A DNA stretch of 64,000 nt from Blastocatellia bacterium (GCA_046331525.1 JAXLQQ010000008.1:29304-93303); one strand, 5' to 3'; shown: positions 5,259 through 63,116, counted from the first letter of the stretch. The notes: generated by a model not told the origin, from the sequence alone. Translations and numbers: made by a program.

Positions 5259-5275
5259 AAATTATCTTATACAGG

Positions 5276-5384
5276 TTTTCATTTCAGTGCCTGGCGCATG
5301 TAGTACCGGCTTCAGCCGGAAGCTGGGCCGGCCATTCCTTCCGGCTGAAGCCGGTACTACATGCGCCAGACACTGAAATGAAAA
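5276..5384. repeat. Long inverted repeat (47-nt arms with 1 mismatch, 15-nt loop) between two minus-strand genes
   Basis: ttttcatttcagtgcctggcgcatgtagtaccggcttcagccggaag / loop ctgggccggccattc / cttccggctgaagccggtactacatgcgccagacactgaaatgaaaa. Confidence 0.8.
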
Positions 5385-5427
5385 CCGATCCAGGTACGGC
5401 AAACAAGCTGTTTGCCGTACCTTTGAC

Positions 5428-10093: not shown

Positions 10094-10112
10094 AGAGCGG
10101 TTGGTGGTTAAT

Positions 10113-10139
10113 GTACTGCAAACATCTTGTTTGCAGTAC
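10113..10139. promoter_or_regulatory. Perfect 12-3-12 palindrome gtactgcaaaca-tct-tgtttgcagtac at the 5' edge of the cupredoxin / histidine-kinase / response-regulator operon (candidate operator)
   Basis: Read directly from the sequence. It is related to the GCAAAC...GTTTGC motifs at 17803-17869 and 23276-23380. Confidence 0.5.
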
Positions 10140-10257
10140 ATCCATCATTGACCATCAACCAAAAGAATAACGCACTCATCCGTGTGTACTTCAGTTGCCG
10201 ATATTTCTCAACCTCCCCTGAAGTTTCGAAATCAAGCACACACCAATGAGTGCGTTA

Positions 10258-10412
10258 TTTTAACGTCAGGGACGGTGCGAAAGGAATGTGTGGTAGCGGT
10301 GGCAGGCAAGCTCGGCAGATTGGTGAGACGAGCGATTGGCCTCAAACCGCTCGCCTCGTGCTGCCTGCCACCGCCGAGAACCATTCCTTTAGTCATCGGC
10401 GTGACGTTAACT
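10258..10412. repeat. About 155-nt imperfect palindrome (long bulged hairpin) in a 535-bp intergenic region; could be a MITE-like element or structured RNA
   Basis: Outer arms ttaacgtcagggacg / cggcgtgacgttaa. Inner arms ggaatg..cggtggcaggca / tgcctgccaccg..cattcc. Central arms gagacgagcg / cgctcgcctc. Confidence 0.5.
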
Positions 10413-17587: not shown

Positions 17588-17802
17588 TGACCGCGACGAA
17601 CGCGCGGGCGTGAAGTTGAATGACGCAGATTTGATCGGCCTTCCCTTCAAATCCCGCATGTCCAGAAACTCAAAGACGGCAACGTCGGAATTTTACGACC
17701 GCGCTGCACCTGACAATCCGAAGACGTAGCCTTGAACGATGTGGCGCGCATCGCCACCAACGTATCCAGGACGCGCTGCAAAAACTGAATGCAGGAAAGT
17801 AG

Positions 17803-17869
17803 CGCAAACGTCTCGTTTGCGTGCCTGTCAGTGGGTTTCCGCAGACAAGCACGCAAACGAGACGTTGCA
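17803..17869. repeat. Inverted pair of the GTAGCGCAAAC-N-GTTTGCG palindromic repeat family, forming a ~26-nt-arm hairpin
   Basis: gcgcaaacgtctcgtttgcgtgcctgtc ... gacaagcacgcaaacgagacgttgc. Confidence 0.65.
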
Positions 17870-22591: not shown

Positions 22592-23278
22592 ATGCTTATG
22601 ATTACGTACCCGATGGTTTTCCTGTTCGATGTGGATAATACGCTGCTCGATAATGATCGCGTTACGGCTGACCTCAGGCGGTATTTGACCACAGAAGTCG
22701 GCCCCGAACGCAGCAACCGCTACTGGGCGATTTTTGAAGAGTTGCGTCGTGAACTCGGCTATGCCGATTATTTGGGGGCGCTGCAACGCTATCGCCTCGA
22801 ACATCCTTACGACACGCATCTGCTGGCCGTCTCCACGTATCTGATCAACTATCCATTTGCTAACCGGCTGTATCCAAATTCGCTGGACGTGTTGGCCTAC
22901 TGTCAGCAACGCGGCCCGGTGGTGATTCTCTCAGATGGCGATGTCGTCTTTCAGCCGCGCAAAGTTGAGCGGTCGGGCTTATTTGAAGCGGTCGAACGCA
23001 ATGTGCTGATTTACGTTCACAAGGAATTGGAACTGCACGATGTCGAGCGGCGCTATCCGGCAGCGCATTACGTGATGGTGGATGACAAGCTGCGGATTCT
23101 GACGGCAATGAAACAAAGCTGGGGCGAGCGGCTGACAACAGTCTTTCCGCGACAAGGACATTACGCGCTGGATGCGGCGGAGGTAGCGAAGTATCCAGCC
23201 GCTGACATTGAAGTGACACGGATTGGCGACCTGCTGGGGAATTCGCAATTTGCGGCGAGGATAGCCCAAATAAAGTAG
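22592..23278 (+). CDS. HAD-superfamily hydrolase
   Basis: GGAGGAG RBS then ATG. MITYPMVFLFDVDNTLLDND is HAD motif I, and VMVDDK is motif IV-like. Confidence 0.75.
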   Translation: MLMITYPMVFLFDVDNTLLDNDRVTADLRRYLTTEVGPERSNRYWAIFEELRRELGYADYLGALQRYRLEHPYDTHLLAVSTYLINYPFANRLYPNSLDVLAYCQQRGPVVILSDGDVVFQPRKVERSGLFEAVERNVLIYVHKELELHDVERRYPAAHYVMVDDKLRILTAMKQSWGERLTTVFPRQGHYALDAAEVAKYPAADIEVTRIGDLLGNSQFAARIAQIK

Positions 23279-23380
23279 CGCAAACATCCTGTTTGCGGCG
23301 CTCAAGGTAGCGCAAACATCTTGTTTGCGGCGCTTAAATTAGTGAAGAAGCGACGAGCAACAAACAAGATGTTTGTTGTA
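23276..23380. repeat. Three copies (two tandem direct, one variant) of the palindromic GCAAACA-N3-TGTTTGC element in a convergent intergenic region
   Basis: gtagcgcaaacatcctgtttgcggcgctcaag; gtagcgcaaacatcttgtttgcggcgcttaaa; caacaaacaagatgtttgttg. Confidence 0.7.
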
Positions 23381-31415: not shown

Positions 31416-34115
31416 TTATTCATAACGCAGCGCCGTGAGCGGGTCAACCTTCATCGCGCGGCGTGCGGGCAGCCAACAGGCCAGCAGTGTCACCAGCACC
31501 AGCACGCTGATGACGACGGCAAAGGTGAGCGGGTCGCGGGCGCTCACGCCGTACAATAAACTGCTCATCCAGCGCGTCACGCCCCACGCCACCGCGATGC
31601 CCAGCGCGACACCGAGCAGTGACAGCGAAAGCCCCTGCCGTAAAACCATGCGTACAATGTCGCGGCGCTGCGCACCGAGCGCCAGCCGCACGCTGATCTC
31701 TCGCGTTTGCTGGCTGACGCCGTACGACACCACGCCATAAATGCCCGTGGTCGCCAGCAGCAAAGCAACTGACGCAAAAATCCCCGTCAGCCACGCCGGG
31801 AAGCGGCGCGTGAAGGCAGCGGGCGTCTGCGCCATCAACGTTTCCATCGTCTGCACATTAAACAGCGCCACCTCTGGTTCCAGGACGCGGCACCGCTCGC
31901 GCACCGCACTGGCAAGCGCCGTAGCATCGCCGCTGGTACGCACGACCAGATTGGCAAAGATGCTGGCGTTTTGCGTAAACGGCACATACAGCACGGGGCG
32001 AATGGCTTGATCCAGTTCAGTAACTTTCACATCCCCGACGACACCAATGATTTCCATTGTCTGGTCAGGAAAGCCGGGGAACTGCAACTGACGGCCTACC
32101 GGATCGCGCCCGCCGAGCAATTTATCGGCCAGCGATTTATTGATGATGCCAACCTGTTTGGCATTGGCCTGATCGCTTTCCGCAAAATCCCGCCCGCGCA
32201 AAAGCGGAATGCCAAGCGCGGCAAAGTAATCGGCACTGGCGACCCGATAATTCACTTCCGTCTCCTGCCCCGGCGGCGGCACCGACTCGCCTGCGACGGT
32301 GAAACGAGTCGTATTGCCGGGTTGCAGCGGCAGTATGTTTACCGTTCCGACGCCCTTGACGCCCGGTAACGTCGAGAGGCTCGCGCGCAATTGCTGAAAG
32401 TAGGCAATGTCGCGCGCTGGTTCGGTATACTTGCTGGCCGGCAGCAGCACATTCATCGTCAGCACATTGCTCGGATCAAAGCCAAGATTGACCTGCATCA
32501 GGCGCAGCAGGCTTTTCATCATCAAACCCGCCCCAACCAGCAGCACGACGGCCAGAGCGATTTCCGTTACGACCAGGGCGCTGCGCAATCGCTGTCGCCC
32601 GCTGCCGCCCGTACTGCGCGCACCTTCCTTCAACGTTTCGTGCCAATCCAGCCGCGATATTTGCAGCGCAGGCGCAAGACCAAACAGTAGTCCCGTCAGC
32701 GTGGTCAGCCCCAGCGCGCACAGCAACAAGCGCGCATCTATTTGCAGCGTCGCCAAAAACGGCAGCGCGAGTACTTGATTTTGCGGCAGGGCTGCCACCA
32801 GTGCGGTCAGTCCCAGGCGCGCAACGAGGATTCCGCCCAGCCCGCCCAGCAAAGATAACAATCCCGCCTCCGTCAGCAACTGGCGCAGCAGCCGCCCGCG
32901 TGTTGCGCCCACTGCCGCGCGCACCGCAACCTCTTTTTGCCGGGCGAGCGAACGCGCCAGCAACAGGCTGGCAACATTCGCACAGACCATCAGCAAGACG
33001 AACCCGACGGCGACCAGCAAGGCCAACAAAACCAGTTTGATGGGGCCGGTAACCTGCTCCTGCAACGGCGTCAGCAACAGGCGCGTCCCTGCATGCGATT
33101 CCTTATGGTCTTCGGCAATGCGTGCGGTGATCGTGCTGGCTTCGGCCTGCGCCTGTTCGAGCGTGAGGCCCGCGCGCAAACGCCCAATCAAATTGGTGCC
33201 GTGCATAAAGCGGCGCGTGAGTTGGTTCGGCGTCGGCTGATACACCAGCCACAAATCGTTGGGGCGCAGGGCGAATTGAAAATGCGGCGGCAACACACCA
33301 ACAACGGTGTACGGCATATTGTTGATGTTGACAGTCTGCCCGACGATGTTGGCATCGCCGCCGAACAACCGTTGCCACATACCATAGGTCAAGACCGTCA
33401 CCCGCGCCGCGCCCGGCTGGTCTTCGCCCGCGTGGAAAGTTCGACCGAGCAACGGTTCGACGCCCAGCACCGCGAAGAAATTGGCGGACGCCGCGGGCGC
33501 GAAAATGCGTTGCGGCTCGCCGCGTCCCGTCAGAACCCCAAGGCCGCCCGCATAAGCCGCCAATCCGTCAAAGACCTTACTCTGTTGATAATCCTGATAA
33601 TCAGGATAAGAAAATTCGCGTTGCGCGTAATCCTTTTGCGGCGTCGTCTCGAACAAATGCACAAGTTGTTCCGGCGCTTGATACGGCAAAGCGCGCAACA
33701 GCGCCGCCTGCACCAGCGTAAAAATCGCCGTATTCGCACCGATGCCCAGCGCGAGCGTCACCACCGCAATTAACGTAAAGCCCGGCTGCTTCCACAGCAT
33801 TCGCGCGCCAAAGCGCAGGTCTTGTAGTAGCGATTCCATAGAACTTCCTCCGCGTTGCTCGATGTGCTCCAGTGCTGGTTGCCACACGCGTGCTGGATAC
33901 GAGTGTTCAGCGCGACTCAACTCCGATTCGAGTAAGCGCCAGTCATAGCTTTGCAATACCTGGTCTGGGGTAAGGGTGTATCCGGCGGCCAGCGCGTCTT
34001 CATAAACCGCCTCAAAATGCAGCGCCAGTTCCTCGCTGATTTCGAGTTCGCGTACTGGCGCGAGCGACAAAGCCGCCAGTTGCGCGCGTACCATTTTGCG
34101 CCAGTCAGGTTGCAT
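31416..34115 (-). CDS. ADOP-family permease (duplicated FtsX / MacB-like) with N-terminal PadR-associated extension; intact
   Basis: ...[42 protein letters not shown], and two FtsX blocks ending [21 protein letters not shown]...PLTALRYE. Confidence 0.85.
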
Positions 34116-34121
34116 CGTGAT

Positions 34122-34454
34122 TTAGGCAGGATTGATTTTCGCCACCCGATCCAGCGCCGTGAAAAAGTCCGCCCAGGTTTGGCGTTGTTCGGTTAAGACC
34201 TTCTTGCCTTGCGCGGTTAGTTTGTAAAACCGCCGTCGTCGCTCGCCCGCCTTTTCGACCCATTGCCCTTTGATCCAGCCGCGTTTTTCCATGCGATACA
34301 GTAGCGGGTAAAGCGTGGCCACGTTGAATTGCAACACGCCCTCCGAGCGGTCGCCGATCAATTTAGCGATTTCATAGCCGTGCCGCGCGCGTTCCTCGAT
34401 CAAGGCCATAATCAGCATCTCCGTACTGCCCTTCTTCAATTCACGATCCAGCAT
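34122..34454 (-). CDS. PadR-family transcriptional regulator
   Basis: A winged-HTH: GSTEMLIMALIEERARHGYEIAKLI...LYPLLYRMEKRGWI. Confidence 0.9.
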   Translation of the reverse strand: MLDRELKKGSTEMLIMALIEERARHGYEIAKLIGDRSEGVLQFNVATLYPLLYRMEKRGWIKGQWVEKAGERRRRFYKLTAQGKKVLTEQRQTWADFFTALDRVAKINPA

Positions 34455-34636
34455 ACGTTGCTCCTCAATATATTGATTTGCGACATATCGTAACGCAGTA
34501 GATGCAAGGCGGCAAGGTTTCAGTCCCAGGCAGAATATTTTTTCTATTGCTTACAGCTTCTGCCCAGTCGCCTCGCTTAGAGAGATGAAAGCAGTTTCGC
34601 AGCCGTCGCCGCGCACCACGTGGCAGCAGGCATTAC

Positions 34637-34653
34637 TATAATTTTTCAAGGAG
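34637..34653 (+). promoter_or_regulatory. Sigma-70-like -10 box (TATAAT) and AAGGAG RBS preceding the 34659 ATG
   Basis: cattacTATAATttttcAAGGAGtcactATG. Confidence 0.4.
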
Positions 34654-34658
34654 TCACT

Positions 34659-35051
34659 ATGGGAAACAATGAATCACAACCGGCCAACCTCGCACAAACC
34701 GACGGAGACCGCCGCACGTTTATGAAGGGCATTGTCGCGGGCACAGTCGCGGCGGGCACGCTTGCCGCTACGACCAACGCCGCACCGGGTCAATACCTGG
34801 GCGCAGCGGCAGCCGCACCGCTCGTTTTCGCCAAACCGCGTCCCGAAACGGCCAAGCTGCGGCTGTCCTTCGATCAACAAAAACAACCCACGCTGATAGA
34901 TATTCAAAACGCCATCGCCAACATCGTGCGTCGTTCCGGCTGCACGAACTGCGGCTTAGGCGGCATTGACATTCATATCCGGCTGGATCAACTCATCAAT
35001 CCCGCAGATCGCTACATGGCTTCGGTCGAAGGCGAGATGCAGTTTGGATAG
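34659..35051 (+). CDS. Small exported protein with twin-arginine signal peptide and C-terminal Cys pair; candidate substrate / precursor of the adjacent MNIO
   Basis: MGNNESQPANLAQTDGDRRTFMKGIVAGTVAAGTLAATTNA is a Tat signal. The mature ~90 aa contains RRSGCTNCGLGGIDIH. It sits first in a unit with the DUF692 and DUF2063-like genes. Confidence 0.6.
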   Translation: MGNNESQPANLAQTDGDRRTFMKGIVAGTVAAGTLAATTNAAPGQYLGAAAAAPLVFAKPRPETAKLRLSFDQQKQPTLIDIQNAIANIVRRSGCTNCGLGGIDIHIRLDQLINPADRYMASVEGEMQFG

Positions 35052-35205
35052 ATGGAAGCAGAAGAGAAAGAAAGACAGAGCGATAGAGGGAGAGAGATGG
35101 AGAGATGGAGAGACAGAGCGATAGCTTCTGGAGGGGCACTCGCCTTATCTTCCCACCGTCTCTCTTACTCTCCATCTCTCCTTCTCTCCTTCTCTCTTTG
35201 CCCCT
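35052..35205. repeat. GA-rich / TC-rich imperfect hairpin element (copy 1 of 3) filling the spacer between the precursor-like gene and the MNIO gene
   Basis: ...agagggagagagatggagagatggagagacagagcgatagc / loop / gtctctcttactctccatctctccttctctccttctctctttgc. Confidence 0.6.
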
Positions 35206-35215
35206 AATTGACATT

Positions 35216-36142
35216 ATGCAAATCACCACAACAAAATCGCCCGCGCCGCTTGGCGTTGGCTTCACTTGGCAAGCGAATTTACCGAAGGCGCTGGGGCGCG
35301 GCTGGGAGTTGGTGGACTTCCTGGAAATCAGCCCGGATGTGTTGTGCCGGGAAAAGGTAACGGACGGGCAGCGGACGTTAGAATATCATCCGGCGCTGCT
35401 CGGCGAAGCGTTGGCTTCCGCAGCGGAGCGCTCGATTGTGATTCACGGACTGGGCTTGTCAATTGGTTCCGCGCACGGTTGGAGCGAGGAGTATTTGCGC
35501 ATCCTCGACCAGTTTCATCAGCAACAATCCTTTCACTGGCACAGCGAGCATTTGTCATATCTGCTGACGACAACGCCGGACGGACAGCCGTTGCATACGG
35601 GGATTCCGCTGCCAATGCCATTTACGGAAGAGGCGTTGGACGTGCTGGTGCCGCGCGCGGTGGCGCTGAATAAACGCTACGGCGTGCCGTTTTGTCTGGA
35701 GAATTTGACGTACTACCTGCCTGGTTTGCCGTGCGATCACGGCTGGGATGAAATCGCTTTTTTGAATGAACTGACCGCGCGGTCGGGCTGTGGGCTGTTG
35801 CTCGATCTGTACAATTTTTATTGCAATGCCGTCAATTTTGGCTTTGATGCGTTGGCGGCGCTCAAGCGATTGCGCCTCGAAAGCGTCATCGAAATTCATC
35901 TGGCCGGCGGCGCTACGCACGACGGATGGCTGACGGACATTCACACGCGCGAAGTGCCGGAGCCGGTGTGGGAACTGTTGGAATGGGTTGCGCCGCGTGC
36001 GCCCAACCTCTGCGGCATCGTGTACGAAGTAATGGAACCGGCGGTGCCGCTGCTTGGCGCAGCACGCCTGACCGCGCAGCTTGAGAGAGTGCGCCGCATC
36101 TGGGACAGCGCACGGGAACGGAGGACGTATGCCATTGGCTGA
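35216..36142 (+). CDS. DUF692-family multinuclear non-haem iron oxidative enzyme (MNIO; MbnB/TglH/BufB-like TIM-barrel)
   Basis: Blocks I recognise from DUF692 proteins: GVGFTW..., HGLGLSIGS, HSEHLSY, FCLENLTYY, IEIHLAGG, CGIVYEVME. The start is at MQITTTKS (codon 38 of the ORF). Confidence 0.8.
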   Translation: MQITTTKSPAPLGVGFTWQANLPKALGRGWELVDFLEISPDVLCREKVTDGQRTLEYHPALLGEALASAAERSIVIHGLGLSIGSAHGWSEEYLRILDQFHQQQSFHWHSEHLSYLLTTTPDGQPLHTGIPLPMPFTEEALDVLVPRAVALNKRYGVPFCLENLTYYLPGLPCDHGWDEIAFLNELTARSGCGLLLDLYNFYCNAVNFGFDALAALKRLRLESVIEIHLAGGATHDGWLTDIHTREVPEPVWELLEWVAPRAPNLCGIVYEVMEPAVPLLGAARLTAQLERVRRIWDSARERRTYAIG

Positions 36143-36722
36143 ATTGCAAACGGCGCTGGGAACAATGATTGCCGAACACGCAGCAGCGGGGCAATTGTCT
36201 ACGGCCACCTGTCTGGCGATTTCCCAACTTCCCCTCACCCCGACAGAACACGCCTGGCTGGCGGCGTTGCCTGCCGGGCGTGGCTTTTGGGTGACGTGCG
36301 ACATTCAACGCTGGTGGCGCGAAACCCGGTTGCGCGATACGGCACGACTGACGCTGGCGGCGTTGGGCACGGAACAGGCGGCGGCACAGCTTACGGCGTA
36401 TTTGAGCGCGCATCTTTGCGAGTCGCTTTTCTTTCTGCCGGAAACGTTCGGTTTCCTGCAATTCGTCGCAGACAGTACGACACAGCCCATCCTGCGCGCC
36501 ATCGCGCAATTTGAAGCGGCGCTGTTGCAGGCCAGAGAAACAGCCGTGCGAGTCGCGGAATCCGCCAGCATCGAAGTGAAAGACACGTGGATAGAATTTT
36601 GTGCGCCGCCGGAGGAAGTGTTGGCAGCCTTGTTGCAGGGCTTCCCGCTGCCTGCGCCGACGACCGAGCGTTTTCCGGTGCTCGTGTCGGCACGACTGCC
36701 GCAGCTTTGGCAGGCTGGTTGA
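36129..36722 (+). CDS. MNIO partner protein (DUF2063-like; MbnC/TglI/BufC analogue)
   Basis: The start MPLAELQTALGTMIAEH is preceded by GGAGGA and overlaps the MNIO stop. Size and position match the usual partner subunit. The sequence-level assignment is weak. Confidence 0.5.
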   Translation: MPLAELQTALGTMIAEHAAAGQLSTATCLAISQLPLTPTEHAWLAALPAGRGFWVTCDIQRWWRETRLRDTARLTLAALGTEQAAAQLTAYLSAHLCESLFFLPETFGFLQFVADSTTQPILRAIAQFEAALLQARETAVRVAESASIEVKDTWIEFCAPPEEVLAALLQGFPLPAPTTERFPVLVSARLPQLWQAG

Positions 36723-36761
36723 GCGCGCATTGACCTCTTGCAAAAGCGCTTTACGCCAGGC

Positions 36762-36848
36762 AATAGACCACAGATGACGCGGATGAGGCGGATTTTCGCG
36801 GGTCTGATCCGCGTGAACCCGCATCATCCGTCCAATCTGTGGTCTATT
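36762..36848. terminator. Imperfect nested hairpin directly after the MNIO unit (terminator-like)
   Basis: aatagaccacagat ... atctgtggtctatt are 14-bp perfect outer arms. Partially matching inner arms and a central cgcggg/cccgcg mini-stem follow. There is no obvious U-tract. Confidence 0.4.
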
Positions 36849-36896
36849 CCGTTCCGTCCGCAAGAGGTCTAATGAATTTCCCCCTTCCTGCATCTA

Positions 36897-39047
36897 TTGT
36901 TCTCTGCCCACGCACAGCGTAGAATCGCCGCTCCGCTCAAGCCGTTTGTTGTCAGGCACAATTTGTTTTCCCGGAAAGTCGCGCTTTGCATGCCCAGTTG
37001 GTCAGAACTCACGCAACAACTTCCACAGATCGTTGACGGTGTCGTCCGCCTCGTGAAATCGCGGCGGCGCGAATGGGCGTTGGTGATCCTGGGCGGCGCG
37101 TTGCTGTTCGTAGGCTTTGCGTTTGCAGGTTGGTTGCCCGCTGAGTTGAAAGAGTTCCTGAATCAAAAGCGCGGCGTGTTGATTTTGCAGGTGCTGCTGT
37201 ATGTCGCGGGCGGCGCGGTGTTCTGCTACGGCGCGTATCGCATTTGGCGACTCACGCAAGCGCCAGAGTTGCCGCCGCTCAAAGATAGCCCGACTGCCAT
37301 CAAAGGGCCGATGGCGTTTACGCCGGGGGATGGCGAACTCTTTCGGAAGCTGGGGCGCGAGAGCGAATTGCAGGAAGTGCTGGGCTATGTGCTCGATAAT
37401 CAGGTGGCGATGGTGACGTTGATGGGGGCTTCGGGCGCGGGCAAGACTTCGTTGCTGCGCGCCGGGCTGACGCACATCCTCAAAAACAAGGGCGTGAAAT
37501 ATCATTACTGGGAAGCGTTGCCGACCAATTCCATCGAACGGCTGTTGCGCGCCATTCAGGATGAGTGGCACGACAACGGCGCGCCCGGCACGGAGGACAA
37601 ACCAGTTCCCGCTTCGCTCGATGATCTCGTGAATCCATCCGCCGAGCTTTGCCCGCAGCAGCACGTCATCGTGTTGGATCAGTTCGAGCAGTTGCGCGGC
37701 AACAAAGCGATCTTTCGGCTGCTGAGCAAAATCGCCCGCGAAGCCCACCCGCCGCATCGCATCACCTGGATCATCGCGTTTCGCCGTGAGTTTTCGGCGC
37801 ACTGGCGCGACTTCATCATTGCCGAACAAAAGCGCGATTTCACGTTGCCGCGCGAAATGTCGTTGCGGTTGTTTACGGTCAAACAGGCGCAGGAAGTCAT
37901 CGGCCAACTCATCAACGAAGCCCATCTGTCCATCGAACAAGCCGTCGTCAACAACCTGATGCAAGCCGCGACCACCGAGAACGAAGTCTTGCCCGTAGAC
38001 ATCGGCATCGGGCTGCTCGTGTTGGCCGAGTTGCACGAACGGCAAAGCGGCAAGACCGTCACGGTTCAGGATTATCAATTCGCCGGAGAAGCCGCCGGGC
38101 TGCTGACGCAATACATCAATCGCTGTCTGGAACGGTTTCCTGAAACCGAACGCGAAACGATTCTGAAAGCGATGCTGGAACTGCGCAATCCTGAAACGAA
38201 TCAACGCCTCGCCGAAGGCTTGCCCGTCGCCGACATCGCCGCGCGGCTGGGCGTTGCGCCGCCGCATTTGAAGCTGTTGCTTGACCATTTATCACAACGC
38301 GGCGTGCGCTTGCTGGAAACGGTCGCTACGCCGACAGAGACGCGCTATCGGTTGCCGCACGAACGGTTGATTCCGGCGTTGCATCGGTTGACGGGTAAAA
38401 TTCTGGCGGAAGTGGATCAGGCCCGATTGAAATTTGAGAAAGCCTTTCTGCACTGGCAAGGCAGCGACAAACAAGCGCAGGCCGTGCTGAAGGGCAAAGA
38501 CCTGAAACTGATCGAACGCTTTGTCACGCAAATTCCCTGGGGCAGCAACGAGCAGGAGAAAAAAGCCTTCCTGCAACAAAGCCAACGCCGCCGCACCTTC
38601 GTCCGCGCTGGCGTCGCCGCCGCCGTGCTCGCCCTGTTTGGCGCAGGCTGGGGCGCGAGTCTGTTTTACCAGCAATATGAAGGCAAACGCTACCTGAGTT
38701 ATAGTGGCTATCCGCCCGAACTCTATGCTTACCAACATCAATTGAAAAAGTTGGAATTGACCGAGCCGCTGAATTTGGAATCATTCACTTGGCTGCACTC
38801 TGCTTCCATCGAAGAATTGGCGCTCAAGTCTGCGCCCTCCTCGAATTCCATTGCCGGACTGTCTTCATTATCAAGATGCCGTTCGCTAAAAAAACTCACG
38901 CTTGATCTGAGCAGCAGTCAGGTGAGCAATGTGGACGCGCTGGAAGGAACTCAAAGCTTGACCCAACTCTCGCTTGTTCTGGGCAGCGAAGCTGATAATC
39001 TAAATGTGCTGGAAGGAACTCAAAGGCTTGACTCAACTCTCGCTTGA
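36897..39047 (+). CDS. Membrane-anchored P-loop NTPase (STAND-like) with C-terminal leucine-rich repeats; the coding sequence evidently continues through the repeat array to ~40108 in shifted frames
   Basis: Two N-terminal TM helices. Walker A VTLMGASGAGKTSLL and Walker B HVIVLDQFEQL. A helical ~350-aa arm-like region and a further TM segment. LRR units LKSAPSSNSIAGLSSL / LTLDLSSSQVSNVDALEGTQSLTQLSLVLG. Confidence 0.65.
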   Translation: MFSAHAQRRIAAPLKPFVVRHNLFSRKVALCMPSWSELTQQLPQIVDGVVRLVKSRRREWALVILGGALLFVGFAFAGWLPAELKEFLNQKRGVLILQVLLYVAGGAVFCYGAYRIWRLTQAPELPPLKDSPTAIKGPMAFTPGDGELFRKLGRESELQEVLGYVLDNQVAMVTLMGASGAGKTSLLRAGLTHILKNKGVKYHYWEALPTNSIERLLRAIQDEWHDNGAPGTEDKPVPASLDDLVNPSAELCPQQHVIVLDQFEQLRGNKAIFRLLSKIAREAHPPHRITWIIAFRREFSAHWRDFIIAEQKRDFTLPREMSLRLFTVKQAQEVIGQLINEAHLSIEQAVVNNLMQAATTENEVLPVDIGIGLLVLAELHERQSGKTVTVQDYQFAGEAAGLLTQYINRCLERFPETERETILKAMLELRNPETNQRLAEGLPVADIAARLGVAPPHLKLLLDHLSQRGVRLLETVATPTETRYRLPHERLIPALHRLTGKILAEVDQARLKFEKAFLHWQGSDKQAQAVLKGKDLKLIERFVTQIPWGSNEQEKKAFLQQSQRRRTFVRAGVAAAVLALFGAGWGASLFYQQYEGKRYLSYSGYPPELYAYQHQLKKLELTEPLNLESFTWLHSASIEELALKSAPSSNSIAGLSSLSRCRSLKKLTLDLSSSQVSNVDALEGTQSLTQLSLVLGSEADNLNVLEGTQRLDSTLA

Positions 39048-40090
39048 TCTGCGCGACAGCCAAGTGAGCAATGTGGACGTGCTGGAAGGAACTCAAAGGC
39101 TTGACCCAACTCTCGCTTGTTCTAGGCAGCGAAGTGAGCAATGTGGACGCGCTGAAGGAACTCGAAAGCTTGACTCAACTCTCGCTTGTTCCGGGCAGCG
39201 AAGTGAGCAATGTGGACGCGCTGGAAGGAACTCAAAGGCTTGACTCAACTCTCGCTTAATCTGAGCTTCTGCAAAGTGAACAATGTGGACGTGCTGAAGG
39301 AACTCAAAAGCTTGACTCAACTCTCGCTTGTTCTGGGCGACAGCGAAGTGAGCAATGTGGGCGTGCTGAAGGAACTCAAAGCTTGACCCAACTCTCGCTT
39401 GATCTGAGCAGCGAAGTGGGCAATGTGGATGTGCCGAAGGAACTCAAAAGCTTGACCCAATTCTCGCTTGATCTGGGCAGCGAAGCGAGTAATCTAAATG
39501 TGCTGAAGGAACTCAAAGGCTTGACCCAATTCTCGCTTGATCTGAGCTTCAGCGAAGTGAGCAATGTGGACGTGCTGGAAGGAACTCAAAGGCGCCCAAC
39601 TCTCGCTTGTTTCGAGCAGCGAAGTGAGCAATGTGGACGTGCTGGAAGGACTCAAAAGCTTGACCCAACTCTCGCTTGTTCCGGGCAGCGAAGTGAACAA
39701 TGTGGACGTGCTGGAAGGAACTCAAGGCTTGACCCAACTCTCGCTTGATCTGAGCTACTGTAAGGTGAGCAATGTGGACGTGCTGGAAGGAACTCAAAGG
39801 CTTGACTCAACTCACGCTTGATCTGAGCTACAGCGAAGTGAGCAATGTGGACGCGCTGGAAGGAACTCAAAGCTTGACCCAACTCTCGCTTGATCTGGGG
39901 GAAAGCAAAGTGAGTAATCTAAATGTGCTGGAAAGAACTCAAAGGCTTGACTCAACTCTCGATTGTTCTGCGCGACAGTCAAGTGAGCAATGTGGATTTG
40001 CTGAAAGAATTGCCGAATTTACAGAAGCTTTCGCTCAACGGTCTAACGAGAGCGCAGCGCATGTCTTTCCAGCAACTTCCTGCGCATCTC
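38880..40090 (+). repeat. Tandem array of ~17 LRR-coding repeats of 69/70 nt (...gtgagcaatgtggacgYgctgRaaggaactcaaaRgcttgacYcaactctcgcttgWtctg...)
   Basis: Period measured between successive gtgagcaatgtggac occurrences (39064, 39134, 39203 ...). The 70-nt variants carry one extra g (caaaggcttg versus caaagcttg) and break the frame. Confidence 0.85.
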
Positions 40091-40143
40091 ACGGAACTGG
40101 CGTTTTAGCTTGCCGCGCTAGCTCGGTGGCAAGCAGCGCCGCT

Positions 40144-41124
40144 TCAGAACGCTACGCCGAGATGCGCGCGATACCACGCAATCGTGCGCGTCAGCCCTTC
40201 GTCCAGCGAGACTGCCGCGCGCCAGCCAAAGCGGCTTTCCACTTTCGCCGCCGATAAATATTGCGCGTCAATCTCGCCTGCGATTTTGCTTTGCAGCAGG
40301 ATGTGCGGCGTCAACTGGTCGGCTTTGCCCGCGAGGCGAATGATGCGCTGGACGAGTTCGCGCATTTGCACTTGTTCGCCCGTGCCGAAGTTGAAGGCTT
40401 CGCCCTGCGCGCGTTCGATCTGTTCGGCCAACGTCAAATAGCCGCGCGCTACGTCATCCACAAACACAAACTCACGCACGGGCGTGCCGTCGCTGCGAAT
40501 GATCGGCGCTTCGTCGCGCAGCACGGCGAGAATCGTGCCGGGGACGATACGCGACAGATTCATATCGCCGGGGCCGTACACATTCGCAAAGCGCGTGACA
40601 GCGACGGGCAAGCCGTAAGCGTGGGCATACGACCGCGCCAGCACATCGGTGCAAACCTTCGAGGCGTCGTAGGGGAACAGGCCATTGAGCGCGTCGTCTT
40701 CGGTGTACGGCAACTGCTCGTGCGTGCCGTAGGCTTTATCGCTCGACGCGACGACGACGCGCTTGACCGTCCGCGTCACGCGACAGGCTTCGAGCAAAAA
40801 GTACGTGCCGCGAATGTTCGTCTCAAACGTCGAAAGCGGCGAACGATTGGCCGCGCCGACAATCGCCTGTGCGCCGAGGTGAAAGACGGCTTCGATTTCG
40901 TATTCGTTCAGAATGCGTTCGAGCAGGGCGTAGTCTTCAAGCGCGCCCTGAATCACCGTGACGCGACGGCGCAGATCAAACAAATCCAACGCATTCGCCC
41001 GCACGTTGTCGCGCTGCAAACAGACGACACGCGCGCCTTGTTCGACTAACAATCGGGTCAGTTGTGCGCCAATAAAACCGGTCGCGCCGGTCACAAAAAC
41101 ATTTCGCTTGTTCCAGAAGGTCAT
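40144..41124 (-). CDS. NAD-dependent epimerase/dehydratase (extended SDR; nucleotide-sugar 4,6-dehydratase / decarboxylase-like)
   Basis: The start is at [22 protein letters not shown] (GxxGxxG). An ASSDKAYG and YDASK catalytic Tyr/Lys are present. The ORF-track N-terminal 55 aa ([12 protein letters not shown]...) is the translation of a GA/TC repeat, not protein. Confidence 0.85.
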
Positions 41125-41129
41125 AGGTG

Positions 41130-41296
41130 GCGACAAGCTTAATCGTTTTTGGTGGAGGTGGAAAGTGTGGGCGGGAAAGAGAGAGGGGGAGAAGGAGAGA
41201 CGGAGGGAAGGAGAGACGGAGGGAAGGAGAGACGGAGAGAAGGGTTGCCTTTGTCGCTCCGTCGCTCCTTCGCTCCCTCTCTCCTTCACGTTTTCG
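41130..41296. repeat. GA-rich / TC-rich hairpin element (copy 2), with internal 16-nt tandem ggaaggagagacggag x3
   Basis: gaaggagagacggagggaaggagagacggagggaaggagagacggag ... cgctccgtcgctccttcgctccctctctccttc. Confidence 0.6.
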
Positions 41297-42430
41297 CTAT
41301 CGGCGGCGGGCAGGCGCGGGCGAGCGGCGCACTTCTTTTGTTACCGAGCCGACATCAGCAGTGGCGGCACCAGCAGGCAGTTTTGTGCCAGCGGGCATTA
41401 AGTAGAGACGGACTTGTGAGCCGTCGTCGCTTTGGCCGGAAGGACGGACGATCAGGCGGTTCGCGTCTACGTGGAAGCCGATGGAACCGTCGGCCAAACG
41501 GTCGCGGACGTTCTTGCCGCGTTCGAGCGACATCGCGGCTTTTTCGCCAGGACGGGAATAGGAATCAATGATGAGTTGTGCAGTTGGATCGGCTTCAAGC
41601 TGGCGCGCCACGTCCATCAAATTGGCTTTGCAGACGTTGTCCACGCGGGCGCTGTTGGTCTTGAAGGTATTGCAGGGCGAGAATTCAGAAACGGCAGCGA
41701 CGAGTTGTTCGGCAACGCGCACGGTGACTTGGCCGCTGGCTTCGCAGTTCGGCAATTCGCTGGTGACCTTCAAACTGATCGTCACGGTCGAGCCGAAGGG
41801 AATGCCGGTGGTGTCGAGTTTGGCGCAACTCAGATCGCCGGAAATTTTGCCCGCAGTCGTTGACCACGCGGGTGTCAGTTTGCCGTAGTTTGCGCCGCCC
41901 GTAATGGTTGTGGAGCAAACGTTGAGGGCTTCGCCCGGATTGATGAATTGTGAACTGCTCGTCAGCGTCAGGCTGGGCGTCGTGAAGCAGGTCGGGCACG
42001 CGATGACGACAAAGGTTTTGGAATCATACGCCGTGCAGTTCCCTTCGCATTCCTTGTACGGCACGCCCGCTTCCGCCGTCACAACGTAGGTGCCGGGCGT
42101 CAATCCTGTCGTATCCAAAACGTAATGCCCATTGATGTCCGACATGCCGTTGCCGCCAGAAACCGTCCACTTCACCGGCAAGGCATCTGCGCCGTCCATG
42201 CCTGACACGCGCGCGGTGAATCCAATTTTATCGCCCGCGCAAATCGTGTTCGCCGCCGGGCGTGTGTAGCCGTCAGCCTGACTTAGAATGACGCCATTTT
42301 CCAAGCGGAGCGTTGGCACTACGCGCGGTTTCAGTTTGCGCGCGTCGTTTTTATCGGGCTTGGTTTGCGCGAAAGAAGTGAGGGCGCAGAGTAGTAGTGT
42401 GAGCGTGAGAAACAATTTTGGACTTTGCAT
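41297..42430 (-). CDS. Secreted protein with Ig-like / PKD-like beta domains and C-terminal OmpA-like peptidoglycan-binding domain
   Basis: Signal peptide [22 protein letters not shown]-terminal [28 protein letters not shown]...NRLIVRPSG. Confidence 0.6.
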
Positions 42431-44632: not shown

Positions 44633-44706
44633 GGGAGAGCGGGGGGAAAAAGAGCAAATACAGCCGCTAGTCTCGCCCTCTCTCTTTCCCTCCTTCTCTC
44701 TGTTAA
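44633..44706. repeat. GA-rich / TC-rich element (copy 3, shorter)
   Basis: gagggagagcggggggaaaaagag ... gccctctctctttccctccttctctct. Confidence 0.45.
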
Positions 44707-50937: not shown

Positions 50938-50946
50938 GCATGCGTA

Positions 50947-51058
50947 GCGCCTGGGAGCGCACGCGGCTCGCGTGCTGAGACGTGAGCAGGAAATCCGCTC
51001 CGAGACAAGTTACAGCGTAGTAAGCCTCAGCACGCGAGCCGCGTGCGCTCCCAAGCGC
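50947..51058. repeat. 33-nt-arm inverted repeat (1 mismatch) with ~46-nt loop, between the phosphatidyltransferase and HAD genes
   Basis: gcgcctgggagcgcacgcggctcgcgtgctgag ... ctcagcacgcgagccgcgtgcgctcccaagcgc. Confidence 0.8.
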
Positions 51059-51078
51059 CGCGCTTATACGAAAAAAGT

Positions 51079-54446: not shown

Positions 54447-54537
54447 CATTCCACCTTTCACCTTACCCATTCCACATTGATGCTCCGAACGGGTTTGGGA
54501 GTATCAAGGTGGAATGGGTAAGGTGGAAGGTGGAATG
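54447..54537. terminator. 29-nt-arm inverted repeat (1 mismatch) with 33-nt loop, between convergent genes (bidirectional-terminator-like)
   Basis: cattccacctttcaccttacccattccac ... gtggaatgggtaaggtggaaggtggaatg. Confidence 0.6.
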
Positions 54538-62851: not shown

Positions 62852-63116
62852 AATTGGGTTGTCCGTTGTCCGTGGTCAGTTGTCCGTTGCAAACTCATTG
62901 AATTTACAGCTTTCCGCAACGCTTCCTTCTTGGGGAACCACTTCAGGCAGGAAAACAACGGACAACTGACGACGGACGACTGACAACCGAAAATCGCGCA
63001 CACTATAACGAAAGAAACCGCATGCGACAAGGCAGCAAAAAGTTTAACGCTGCCCATTGCGCCGCCTGCCAAAAAACGGTACTCTTGCGCCCGTGTCCCG
63101 CCCAAGTGATTCCAAT

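Follow-up and report, generated by a model that had tools for sequence, protein, structure and literature searches.

We characterized a candidate protein-maturation unit in a 64,000-nt stretch of DNA from a soil-dwelling acidobacterium, a Blastocatellia bacterium (GCA_046331525.1 JAXLQQ010000008.1:29304-93303), referred to below as the window, to whose positions the coordinates refer. The unit comprises three genes on the plus strand: one for a small protein of 130 amino acids (34659..35051), one for a 308-residue enzyme in the family called multinuclear non-haem iron oxidases (MNIO; DUF692) (35216..36142), and one for a 197-residue protein, here called the partner (36129..36722). An AAGGAG Shine–Dalgarno sequence lies 5 nt ahead of the ATG of the small-protein gene, and the ATG of the partner gene overlaps the stop codon of the MNIO gene by 14 nt, an overlap that is identical in three related loci (L001, L002, and L007). 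The co-directional and tightly coupled arrangement that a first-pass annotation had proposed for these open reading frames (ORFs) was thus found as described. Two minus-strand ORFs, 35555..36304 and 35913..36893, were rejected as GC-rich artefacts; the conserved proteins are the plus-strand ones.

The product of the central gene matches Pfam PF05114 (MbnB_TglH_ChrH) over residues 14–265 with an E value of 1.2e-50 and 172.6 bits (cutoff 25). It contains HGLGLS, HSEHLS, LEN, and YEV blocks, and the match, together with the HSEHLS, LEN, and HLAG blocks, bears out its initial assignment to DUF692. Its D-L-Y-N, H-L-A-G, and D-I-H blocks align with D-x-x-N, H-V-A-G, and D-T-H of MbnB (7tcr_A), as well as with TglH; on the strength of the published MbnB structures, we take the D-x-x-N, HLAG, and D-x-H blocks to be iron ligands. 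In a PDB search, the closest solved structures were those of TglH (E 2.7e-21) and of 3bww, a DUF692 protein from Haemophilus. When scored against the NCBIfam models of the named MNIO classes, the enzyme reached none of their equivalog cutoffs, with 137.1 bits for BufB (cutoff 310), 126 for HvfB (360), 94 for ApyH (400), 72.2 for ChrH (600), and 16 for MbnB (325). The MNIOs of five related loci gave the same ranking of BufB, HvfB, ApyH, and ChrH, with 130–148 bits for BufB and MbnB under the reporting threshold. Since the MNIOs of related loci score 200–580 bits against the window enzyme, exceeding the scores against the named models, the enzymes of these loci form a subfamily of their own. The match to the ChrH model was limited to profile positions 56–262 of 363; with this end point and a length of only 308 residues, the enzyme leaves no space for a C-terminal helical bundle.

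The small protein has only two Cys residues, C95 and C98, both within SGCTNCGLGGID. They belong to the core motif G94-C-T-N-C-G-L-G-G-I-D104 (34938..34970, plus strand), which we propose as the site of modification by the MNIO. A first homologue search returned 27 relatives of 125–135 residues with 57–68% identity, two of which were named at source, both as Blastocatellia; RR-x-F-x-K-G and GC-x-x-CG-x-G-I-D were invariant in the alignment of these close homologues. A profile search covering 1.84 billion cluster representatives then retrieved 102 representatives (50% identity) at E<=1e-3. Motif counts were made on 156 collected sequences, and the 151 of them with C-x-x-C-G were used for a sequence logo, which reads G(140) C(151) P(101)/T(22) x C(151) G(151) L(129)/F(17) x G(150) [IFLV] D(131). 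The family consensus, G-C-[PT]-x-C-G-[LF]-x-G-[ILFV]-D, is therefore close to universal; C95, C98, G99, and G102 are invariant in a set of 71 diverse members, and 113 of the 151 sequences contain exactly two Cys. The mature part is covered by no Pfam or NCBIfam model, and among the 71 diverse members the sole recurrent matches were to models of the twin-arginine (Tat) signal. In an AlphaFold2 model built from the 71-sequence alignment, the signal (residues 1 to ~42) and a linker are disordered or of low confidence and are followed by a compact domain at residues 65–124, comprising a strand (65–72), a helix (79–93), the Cys loop, and two further strands (103–110 and 119–124). The confidence score (pLDDT) is ~90 in this domain and dips to 71 in the Cys loop, as against ~90 in the flanking core, which suggests that the CxxCG loop is exposed on an otherwise compact beta-alpha-[loop]-beta-beta domain. 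The small protein thus represents an unannotated family of small, mostly Tat-targeted, and probably folded proteins with a single CxxCG loop. The family occurs almost solely in uncultured soil bacteria and has no Pfam or NCBIfam model, which is why surveys of reference genomes missed it. Four members from JGI data (P0017, P0127, P0227, and P0230) carry the source annotation 'anaerobic selenocysteine-containing dehydrogenase', evidently a mis-annotation from the Tat signal alone.

A Tat consensus consists of S/T-R-R-x-F-L-K, a weakly hydrophobic h-region, and an AxA cleavage site, and the corresponding features are all present in the window protein. DRRTFMKG occupies residues 17–24, with the RRTFMK motif itself at residues 18–23 (34710..34727, plus strand), and is followed by IVAGTVAAGTLAAT and a TNA↓A cleavage-type site near residue 42; the family cleavage consensus is ANA↓A, of the signal-peptidase-I type. 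Both the twin-arginine signal and the C-terminal Cys pair had been noticed in the first-pass annotation of this 130-residue protein, and both are where it placed them. In the family alignments, R18, R19, and F21 vary hardly or not at all. Across the family, RRx[FLIVM] is present in 124 of 151 members (82%), ~73 residues upstream of CxxCG, and the strict form RRxF in 117. The n-region is long and acidic; the h-region contains much Ala (36%), Gly (18%), Val, and Thr and is only weakly hydrophobic, with a mean hydropathy of 1.43. At E<=0.1, TIGR01409 matched 52 of the 71 diverse members and PF10518 (TAT_signal) 32, the best E values being 2.5e-6 for TIGR01409 and 6e-5 for PF10518; TIGR02811 was matched by 52 members and the Rieske Tat signal by 21. 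When the family profile was searched against the PDB, it retrieved the Tat signals of NapA, AioB (arsenite oxidase), NosZ, Rieske proteins, and MelC1, and only such bona fide ones. We infer from these sequence features that the small protein would be exported by the Tat route. Signal-peptide cleavage is its only predicted processing and would leave a product of ~88 residues.

The partner matched nothing in Pfam or NCBIfam, nor in the PDB by a profile search, and only one of 41 of its homologues matched DUF2063, with an E value of 0.037. Altogether, 98 homologues were found. Its AlphaFold2 model, built from a 41-sequence alignment (pLDDT 95), consists of eight helices followed by a short beta-alpha-beta-beta unit, in which the predicted tail resembles a truncated recognition element of the RRE type. 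The predicted structure is DUF2063/TglI-like, a likeness that is visible only at this level. The earlier description of a DUF2063-like protein of ~200 residues whose start overlaps the end of the enzyme gene therefore holds for the predicted structure, the length, and the overlap, but not as a Pfam DUF2063 match. With its predicted similarity to NGO1945 (3dee) or TglI (8hi7), its lack of Pfam DUF2063, and its position directly after the MNIO, the partner fits what Antoine et al. term 'PME-type 2' (PMC12452194).

We then compared the neighbourhoods of related genes, examining those of close members of the small-protein family (P0005, P0019, and P0020), of distant ones with 27–37% identity (P0244, P0250, and P0154), and of partner homologues (P0082, P0094, and P0102). 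All ORFs of the retrieved loci were searched with our own profiles of the three proteins. A genome scan with a narrower alignment gave 7 loci and a metagenome scan 11, one of which, L029, is a low-complexity false positive. The order was that of the window: a small-protein gene, an MNIO gene, and a gene for a protein of 179–260 residues without a Pfam match, set in unrelated flanks. Every locus from the genomes and look-ups keeps this order wherever the contig allows, as do the metagenome loci L022–L026, L028, and L030. An MNIO gene stands directly 3′ of the small gene or genes in 21 of the 22 loci with sufficient downstream sequence; the co-occurrence of the three genes on which the first-pass proposal depended is thus borne out. 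The remaining locus, L021:3001-5450 on a 53.8-kb contig, encodes a small protein that has both a Tat signal and an intact GCTRCGFDGID loop; the gene after it is for a secreted S8-like peptidase of 660 residues. No exporter, protease, DoxX, or metal-resistance gene was conserved in the neighbourhoods examined.

Variants of the module differ in what precedes the Cys loop. In Moorena producens (L006:4244-6699), homologous MNIO and partner genes follow a precursor ORF of 101 residues without a Tat signal, which has a double-glycine-like leader (…EEEAQTISGG), a core (…SGACFACGRGGLDPRID…; SGACFACGRGGLD), and, at its C-terminus, four additional Cys. The only feature that this precursor has in common with the small-protein family is the C-x-x-C-G-x-G-G-x-D loop. 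In the same locus the gap between the MNIO and partner genes is 327 nt, and GCTGATA tandem repeats fill the spacer that separates the precursor gene from the MNIO gene. Signal-less versions of 64–97 residues, which start right at strand 1, are found in L016, a Terriglobia locus, and in several metagenome loci. Signal-bearing and signal-less copies also occur side by side: in L022:22-947, one Tat-bearing copy precedes two signal-less ones, and the MNIO and partner genes come next, while L023:2761-3481 and L025:1833-2554 each have one Tat-bearing and then one signal-less copy before an MNIO gene inside which the contig ends. Paralogous precursor arrays before one modifying enzyme are typical of peptide-modification clusters. 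Since the Moorena precursor keeps only the loop, and signal-less versions and mixed arrays exist, the loop is indicated as the target. Hitch-hiking on a signal-bearing protein is established for other Tat substrates, and by analogy the mixed arrays suggest the idea that signal-less copies may leave the cell bound to a Tat-bearing one.

The 164-nt spacer between the small-protein and MNIO genes (35052..35215, plus strand) is occupied by a palindrome of a GA arm (~35085-35121) and a TC arm (~35151-35195), with a folding energy of -70.6 kcal/mol and a z score of -3.3; none of 200 shuffled sequences folded as well. The element has an 8-nt periodicity of GGAGAGAC-like units. A second full copy (-84 kcal/mol) occupies 41170-41300, in the interval between two genes of the minus strand, and a fragment resembling the TC arm lies at 44672-44701. 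The GA/TC hairpin is thus one copy of a dispersed palindromic element, and a locus-specific riboregulator was rejected because of the second copy in another intergenic region. A terminator scan did not call the spacer element, which has no T-run. Non-homologous hairpins occupy the equivalent spacer in L001 (-72 kcal/mol), L002, L003, L005, L006, L007, L009, and L020, and in some of these relatives a T-run follows: TTTTT in L007 (-59 kcal/mol), ATTTTC in L009, and TTTTTT in L002, L003, and L005. No spacer hairpin was found in L017 or in the P0250 locus. A stem-loop after the precursor gene is therefore recurrent but non-homologous, and it would fit partial termination or a stabilization of the transcript that raises the precursor over the enzyme. 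The notion of a spacer attenuator, as first put forward, keeps the hairpin and its positional recurrence, but the sequence itself is a dispersed repeat without a U-tract, and the spacer is 164 rather than 165 nt long.

Directly 3′ of the partner gene lies a long inverted repeat with 52-nt arms (36753..36857, plus strand; -80.8 kcal/mol, z -7.1), in which no T-run was detected and which is probably either a 3′ stem-loop of the operon or another palindromic element. Other long, near-perfect intergenic palindromes occur in the window at 5274-5386, 50942-51063, 54447-54537, 62854-62991, and 10166-10259, one of them with 49-nt arms of 98% complementarity, and the genome is rich in hairpin-forming repeats of several unrelated sequence types. 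There are also four copies of a short hairpin motif (GCAAACATCTTGTTTGC-like), two of them in tandem (10110-10141, 17796-17827, and 23272-23335); the motif has the look of a REP-type element or of a terminator or operator in shared use.

The flanking genes identified by Pfam include a PadR regulator (34122..34454, minus strand) and a MacB_PCD/FtsX permease (31416..34115, minus strand), the ADOP exporter of the first-pass annotation, upstream, and an nSTAND1 NTPase (36897..39047, plus strand) downstream; an M61 peptidase gene also lies upstream on the strand opposite to the unit. The regulator, the permease, and the NTPase had all been named correctly, but we rejected them as members of the unit, as they are missing from most homologous loci. 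Outside the window, only the closely related L001 has them, and there four inserted genes separate them from the module. The module is self-contained, and these genes are bystanders. After the nSTAND1 ORF, which stops at 39047, tandem repeats of ~70 nt (38855-40108) encode leucine-rich-repeat-like units (…LKELKGLTQLSLDLS.S.VSNVDVL…) in an array readable in three different frames, which could be due to frameshifts, to decay of the gene, or to collapse of the array in the assembly. The called ORF of an NAD-dependent epimerase (40144-41289, minus strand) extends upstream into the second GA/TC element, which adds an N-terminal stretch; its true start is probably an internal Met.

Taken together, we consider it likely that the three genes constitute an MNIO maturation module in which the small protein is the substrate and is modified and then exported by the Tat route. 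The order conserved in unrelated flanks, the near-universal motif, the loop-only likeness of the Moorena precursor, and the paralogue arrays all argue for the small protein as the substrate. In the scheme that we propose, the small protein would be made in the cytoplasm, where its beta-alpha-beta-beta domain would present the loop G-C-[PT]-x-C-G-[LF]-x-G-x-D, and the DUF2063-like partner would dock it onto the tri-iron MNIO. With O2, the enzyme would oxidize one or both loop Cys in a four-electron reaction. BufB and HvfB turn single Cys residues into thiooxazoles or oxazolone-thioamides, which bind copper, and the products here may be such heterocycles, as formed by BufB and HvfB/MbnB, or a Cys–Cys macrocycle with hydantoin of the ChrH/DybH type. 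As the motif is ChrH-like, yet the enzyme is nearest to BufB and HvfB, we commit ourselves only to the four-electron oxidation of loop Cys. By a rough estimate, separate heterocycles are the leading candidate at somewhat under an even chance, a ChrH-like crosslink comes next as a serious contender, and some other product is the least probable of the three. The modified and already folded protein would then leave via the Tat pathway and be cleaved after the ANA-type site, and its periplasmic role would most plausibly be metal binding; signal-less paralogues of the same operon may ride out with the Tat-bearing copy. As the first-pass annotation suggested, the small protein may be modified in its folded state or loaded with metal ahead of export. 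A more specific form of this proposal is possible but doubtful: two adjacent Cys-derived heterocycles would form a chelating site like that of methanobactins or bufferins, built in the cytoplasm within a folded protein, with the holo-protein exported by Tat and, in some operons, signal-less modified paralogues joining it as hetero-oligomers. If true, MNIO products would for the first time include a Tat-dependent class, with a metal cofactor that is installed post-translationally and derives from the backbone of the protein itself.

Several observations weigh against the proposed module or its details. The window protein scores below the curated cutoffs of the Tat hidden Markov models (13.5 versus 22.7 and 13.3 versus 16.7), so that the assignment is drawn from the motif and from how the family as a whole behaves. 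About 18% of the members lack a signal, and the operons L016, L028, and L030 encode signal-less versions only, so Tat export is not essential to the system. L021, the only orphan member, is the sole exception to the gene order: the 3 kb to each side of it contain no MNIO. No metal-homeostasis gene was consistently adjacent in the neighbourhoods examined, and, because the MNIO is not close to any characterized enzyme, its chemistry cannot be read from homology. The low scores and the signal-less and leader-type variants would suit an N-terminus that is not a working Tat signal but a signal for Sec, an anchor in the membrane, or a leader that the partner recognizes, of the type found on peptides made by ribosomes and modified after translation (RiPPs), with RRxFxK kept for recognition by the enzyme. 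We regard this as improbable: the motif is the textbook one, the long acidic n-region and the weakly hydrophobic Ala/Gly/Thr h-region lead up to an AxA site, and the family profile, with TIGR01409 found in most of the diverse members, pulls only genuine Tat signals from the PDB. The signal-less variants, moreover, retain the entire mature domain, which makes this domain, and not the N-terminus, the common recognized unit. It does speak for the alternative that the signal-bearing MNIO precursors described so far all use Sec (PMC12452194). A little less probable still is the view that the small protein is no substrate at all but a Tat-exported CxxC protein with a redox, metal, or sulfur-carrier function, SoxY-like or of the thiol-disulfide kind, that only cooperates or is co-regulated with an MNIO whose target is another molecule. 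The predicted folded domain and the orphan beside its secreted peptidase would agree with such a role, as would the matches of one family member to SoxY GGCGG and one to NifU, but these matches are single and reach only E 0.03–0.05. It speaks against this view that no further small ORF with Cys is conserved across the loci. The precursor-like paralogue arrays and the retention of the motif alone in Moorena likewise favour a substrate, and the gene order is the canonical one of MNIO systems, namely precursor, MNIO, and partner (PMC12452194).

The likeliest alternative is that of a ChrH/DybH-type system in disguise, that is, a divergent branch of the chryseobasin and DAG-RiPP systems with an internal motif. 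MNIOs of the ChrH family convert the CPxCGxG of ChrA, DybA, and MelA1 into a Cys–Cys macrocycle with hydantoin, with a mass shift of -4 Da, or of +10 Da with methylation (PMC13056109), and a disguised member would yield the -4 Da macrocycle. The C-[PT]-x-C-G of the small-protein family resembles this motif, and both internal motifs and substrates of >30 kDa are already known in the ChrH family (PMC13056109). The ChrA precursor model NF050124 was also weakly matched by two of the 71 diverse members (best E 0.0045), and NF050125 by one. The enzyme itself points the other way, as its 72 bits fall far short of the ChrH cutoff of 600 and are lower than its scores for BufB, HvfB, or ApyH, and as the 308-residue protein, with a match that stops at 262 of 363, does not have the C-terminal helical bundle characteristic of the ChrH subfamily (PMC13056109). 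Enzymes of the ChrH type work without a partner, yet here a DUF2063-like one is strictly conserved. The invariant Gly, too, lies one residue later than in CPxCGxG, giving C-x-x-C-G-x-x-G: only 61 of 151 members have Gly at the position equivalent to G7 of ChrA, as against 150 at the next residue. On balance, a ChrH-type system seems unlikely, though it is the alternative to be taken most seriously.

The new peptide chemistry obtained from MNIO enzymes is expanding rapidly, and the module considered here would offer a minimal, three-gene system for asking whether folded proteins are modified, in what order modification and export occur, and what chemistry befalls CxxCG outside the ChrH clade. 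In the 2025 survey of MNIO substrates, exported precursors have Sec signals and DUF2063 (type 1) partners, signal-less ones have type 2 partners, and Tat is nowhere mentioned (PMC12452194). Full-text searches likewise returned no relevant literature linking MNIO or DUF692 with Tat or twin-arginine export. No MNIO substrate has thus been reported to use the twin-arginine route. The small-protein family breaks the published rule in that a putative substrate with a Tat signal is paired with a type 2-like partner, and its presumed target loop lies in a domain predicted to be folded.

The module shares several features with the bufferin systems, BufA-BufB-BufC with DoxX (Leprevost et al. 2024; Antoine et al. 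2025, PMC12452194): the order of precursor, MNIO, and partner; a precursor in which an export signal replaces the classical leader; Cys as the likely target; a product that would be periplasmic; and BufB as the top-scoring named MNIO model (137 bits). Unlike bufferins, the small protein has a Tat and not a Sec signal and carries neither DUF2282 nor a BUF_6/12Cys signature; its MNIO is far under the BufB cutoff of 310; no neighbourhood examined contains a DoxX gene; the partner is of type 2, without the Pfam DUF2063 of type 1; and the CxxCG loop occurs once, within a domain predicted to be folded. With the ChrH systems (chryseobasin, the DybA DAG-RiPPs, and MelA1), it has in common the two Cys in a C-P-x-C-G motif and the weak matches to the ChrA model, and in that family such a motif is modified on a whole protein (MelA1) and on secreted substrates (PMC13056109). 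Apart from the enzyme score, the bundle, the partner, and the Gly position discussed above, it differs from them in that its motif is internal and its signal is of the Tat type rather than a Sec signal for signal peptidase I or II (SPI/SPII).

TglHI, the 3-thiaglutamate/pearlin system of 'PME-type 2', is similar in that TglH is the closest solved MNIO and in that the partner has no Pfam signature. TglA, however, has a leader peptide, a C-terminal Cys, and no export signal, whereas the small protein has an internal Cys pair and would be exported as a folded protein. In the oxazolins (HvfA-HvfB-HvfC) and methanobactins (MbnA-MbnB-MbnC), a Cys is likewise followed by Gly (EGKCG), and their products bind copper, but the window enzyme scores 126 of 360 for HvfB and 16 of 325 for MbnB, and EGKCG repeats and genes for methanobactin transport or maturation are absent; nor did we find the pair of MbnB and MbnC equivalogs by which a methanobactin system is recognized. 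The putative 'adjamnio-7' precursors (PMC12452194) are small, contain CxxC, are predicted to be structured, and stand beside a minor MNIO cluster; by their published description alone, they are set apart as signal-less proteins from Pseudomonadota, and they could overlap the signal-less branch of the small-protein family.

Judged by sequence, the system would therefore be neither bufferin, methanobactin, nor chryseobasin by any membership test applied, and the bufferin or methanobactin type suggested in the first-pass annotation has to be given up, as the equivalog cutoffs are missed and DUF2282, DoxX, Pfam DUF2063, and a Sec signal are lacking. Its suggestion of a different substrate class, by contrast, agrees with the Tat-signal small protein that stands beside an MNIO and a type 2-like partner in nearly every locus. 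Thus, what sets this module apart from the known systems is the combination of a distinct MNIO subfamily, a type 2-like partner, and an unannotated family of small proteins.

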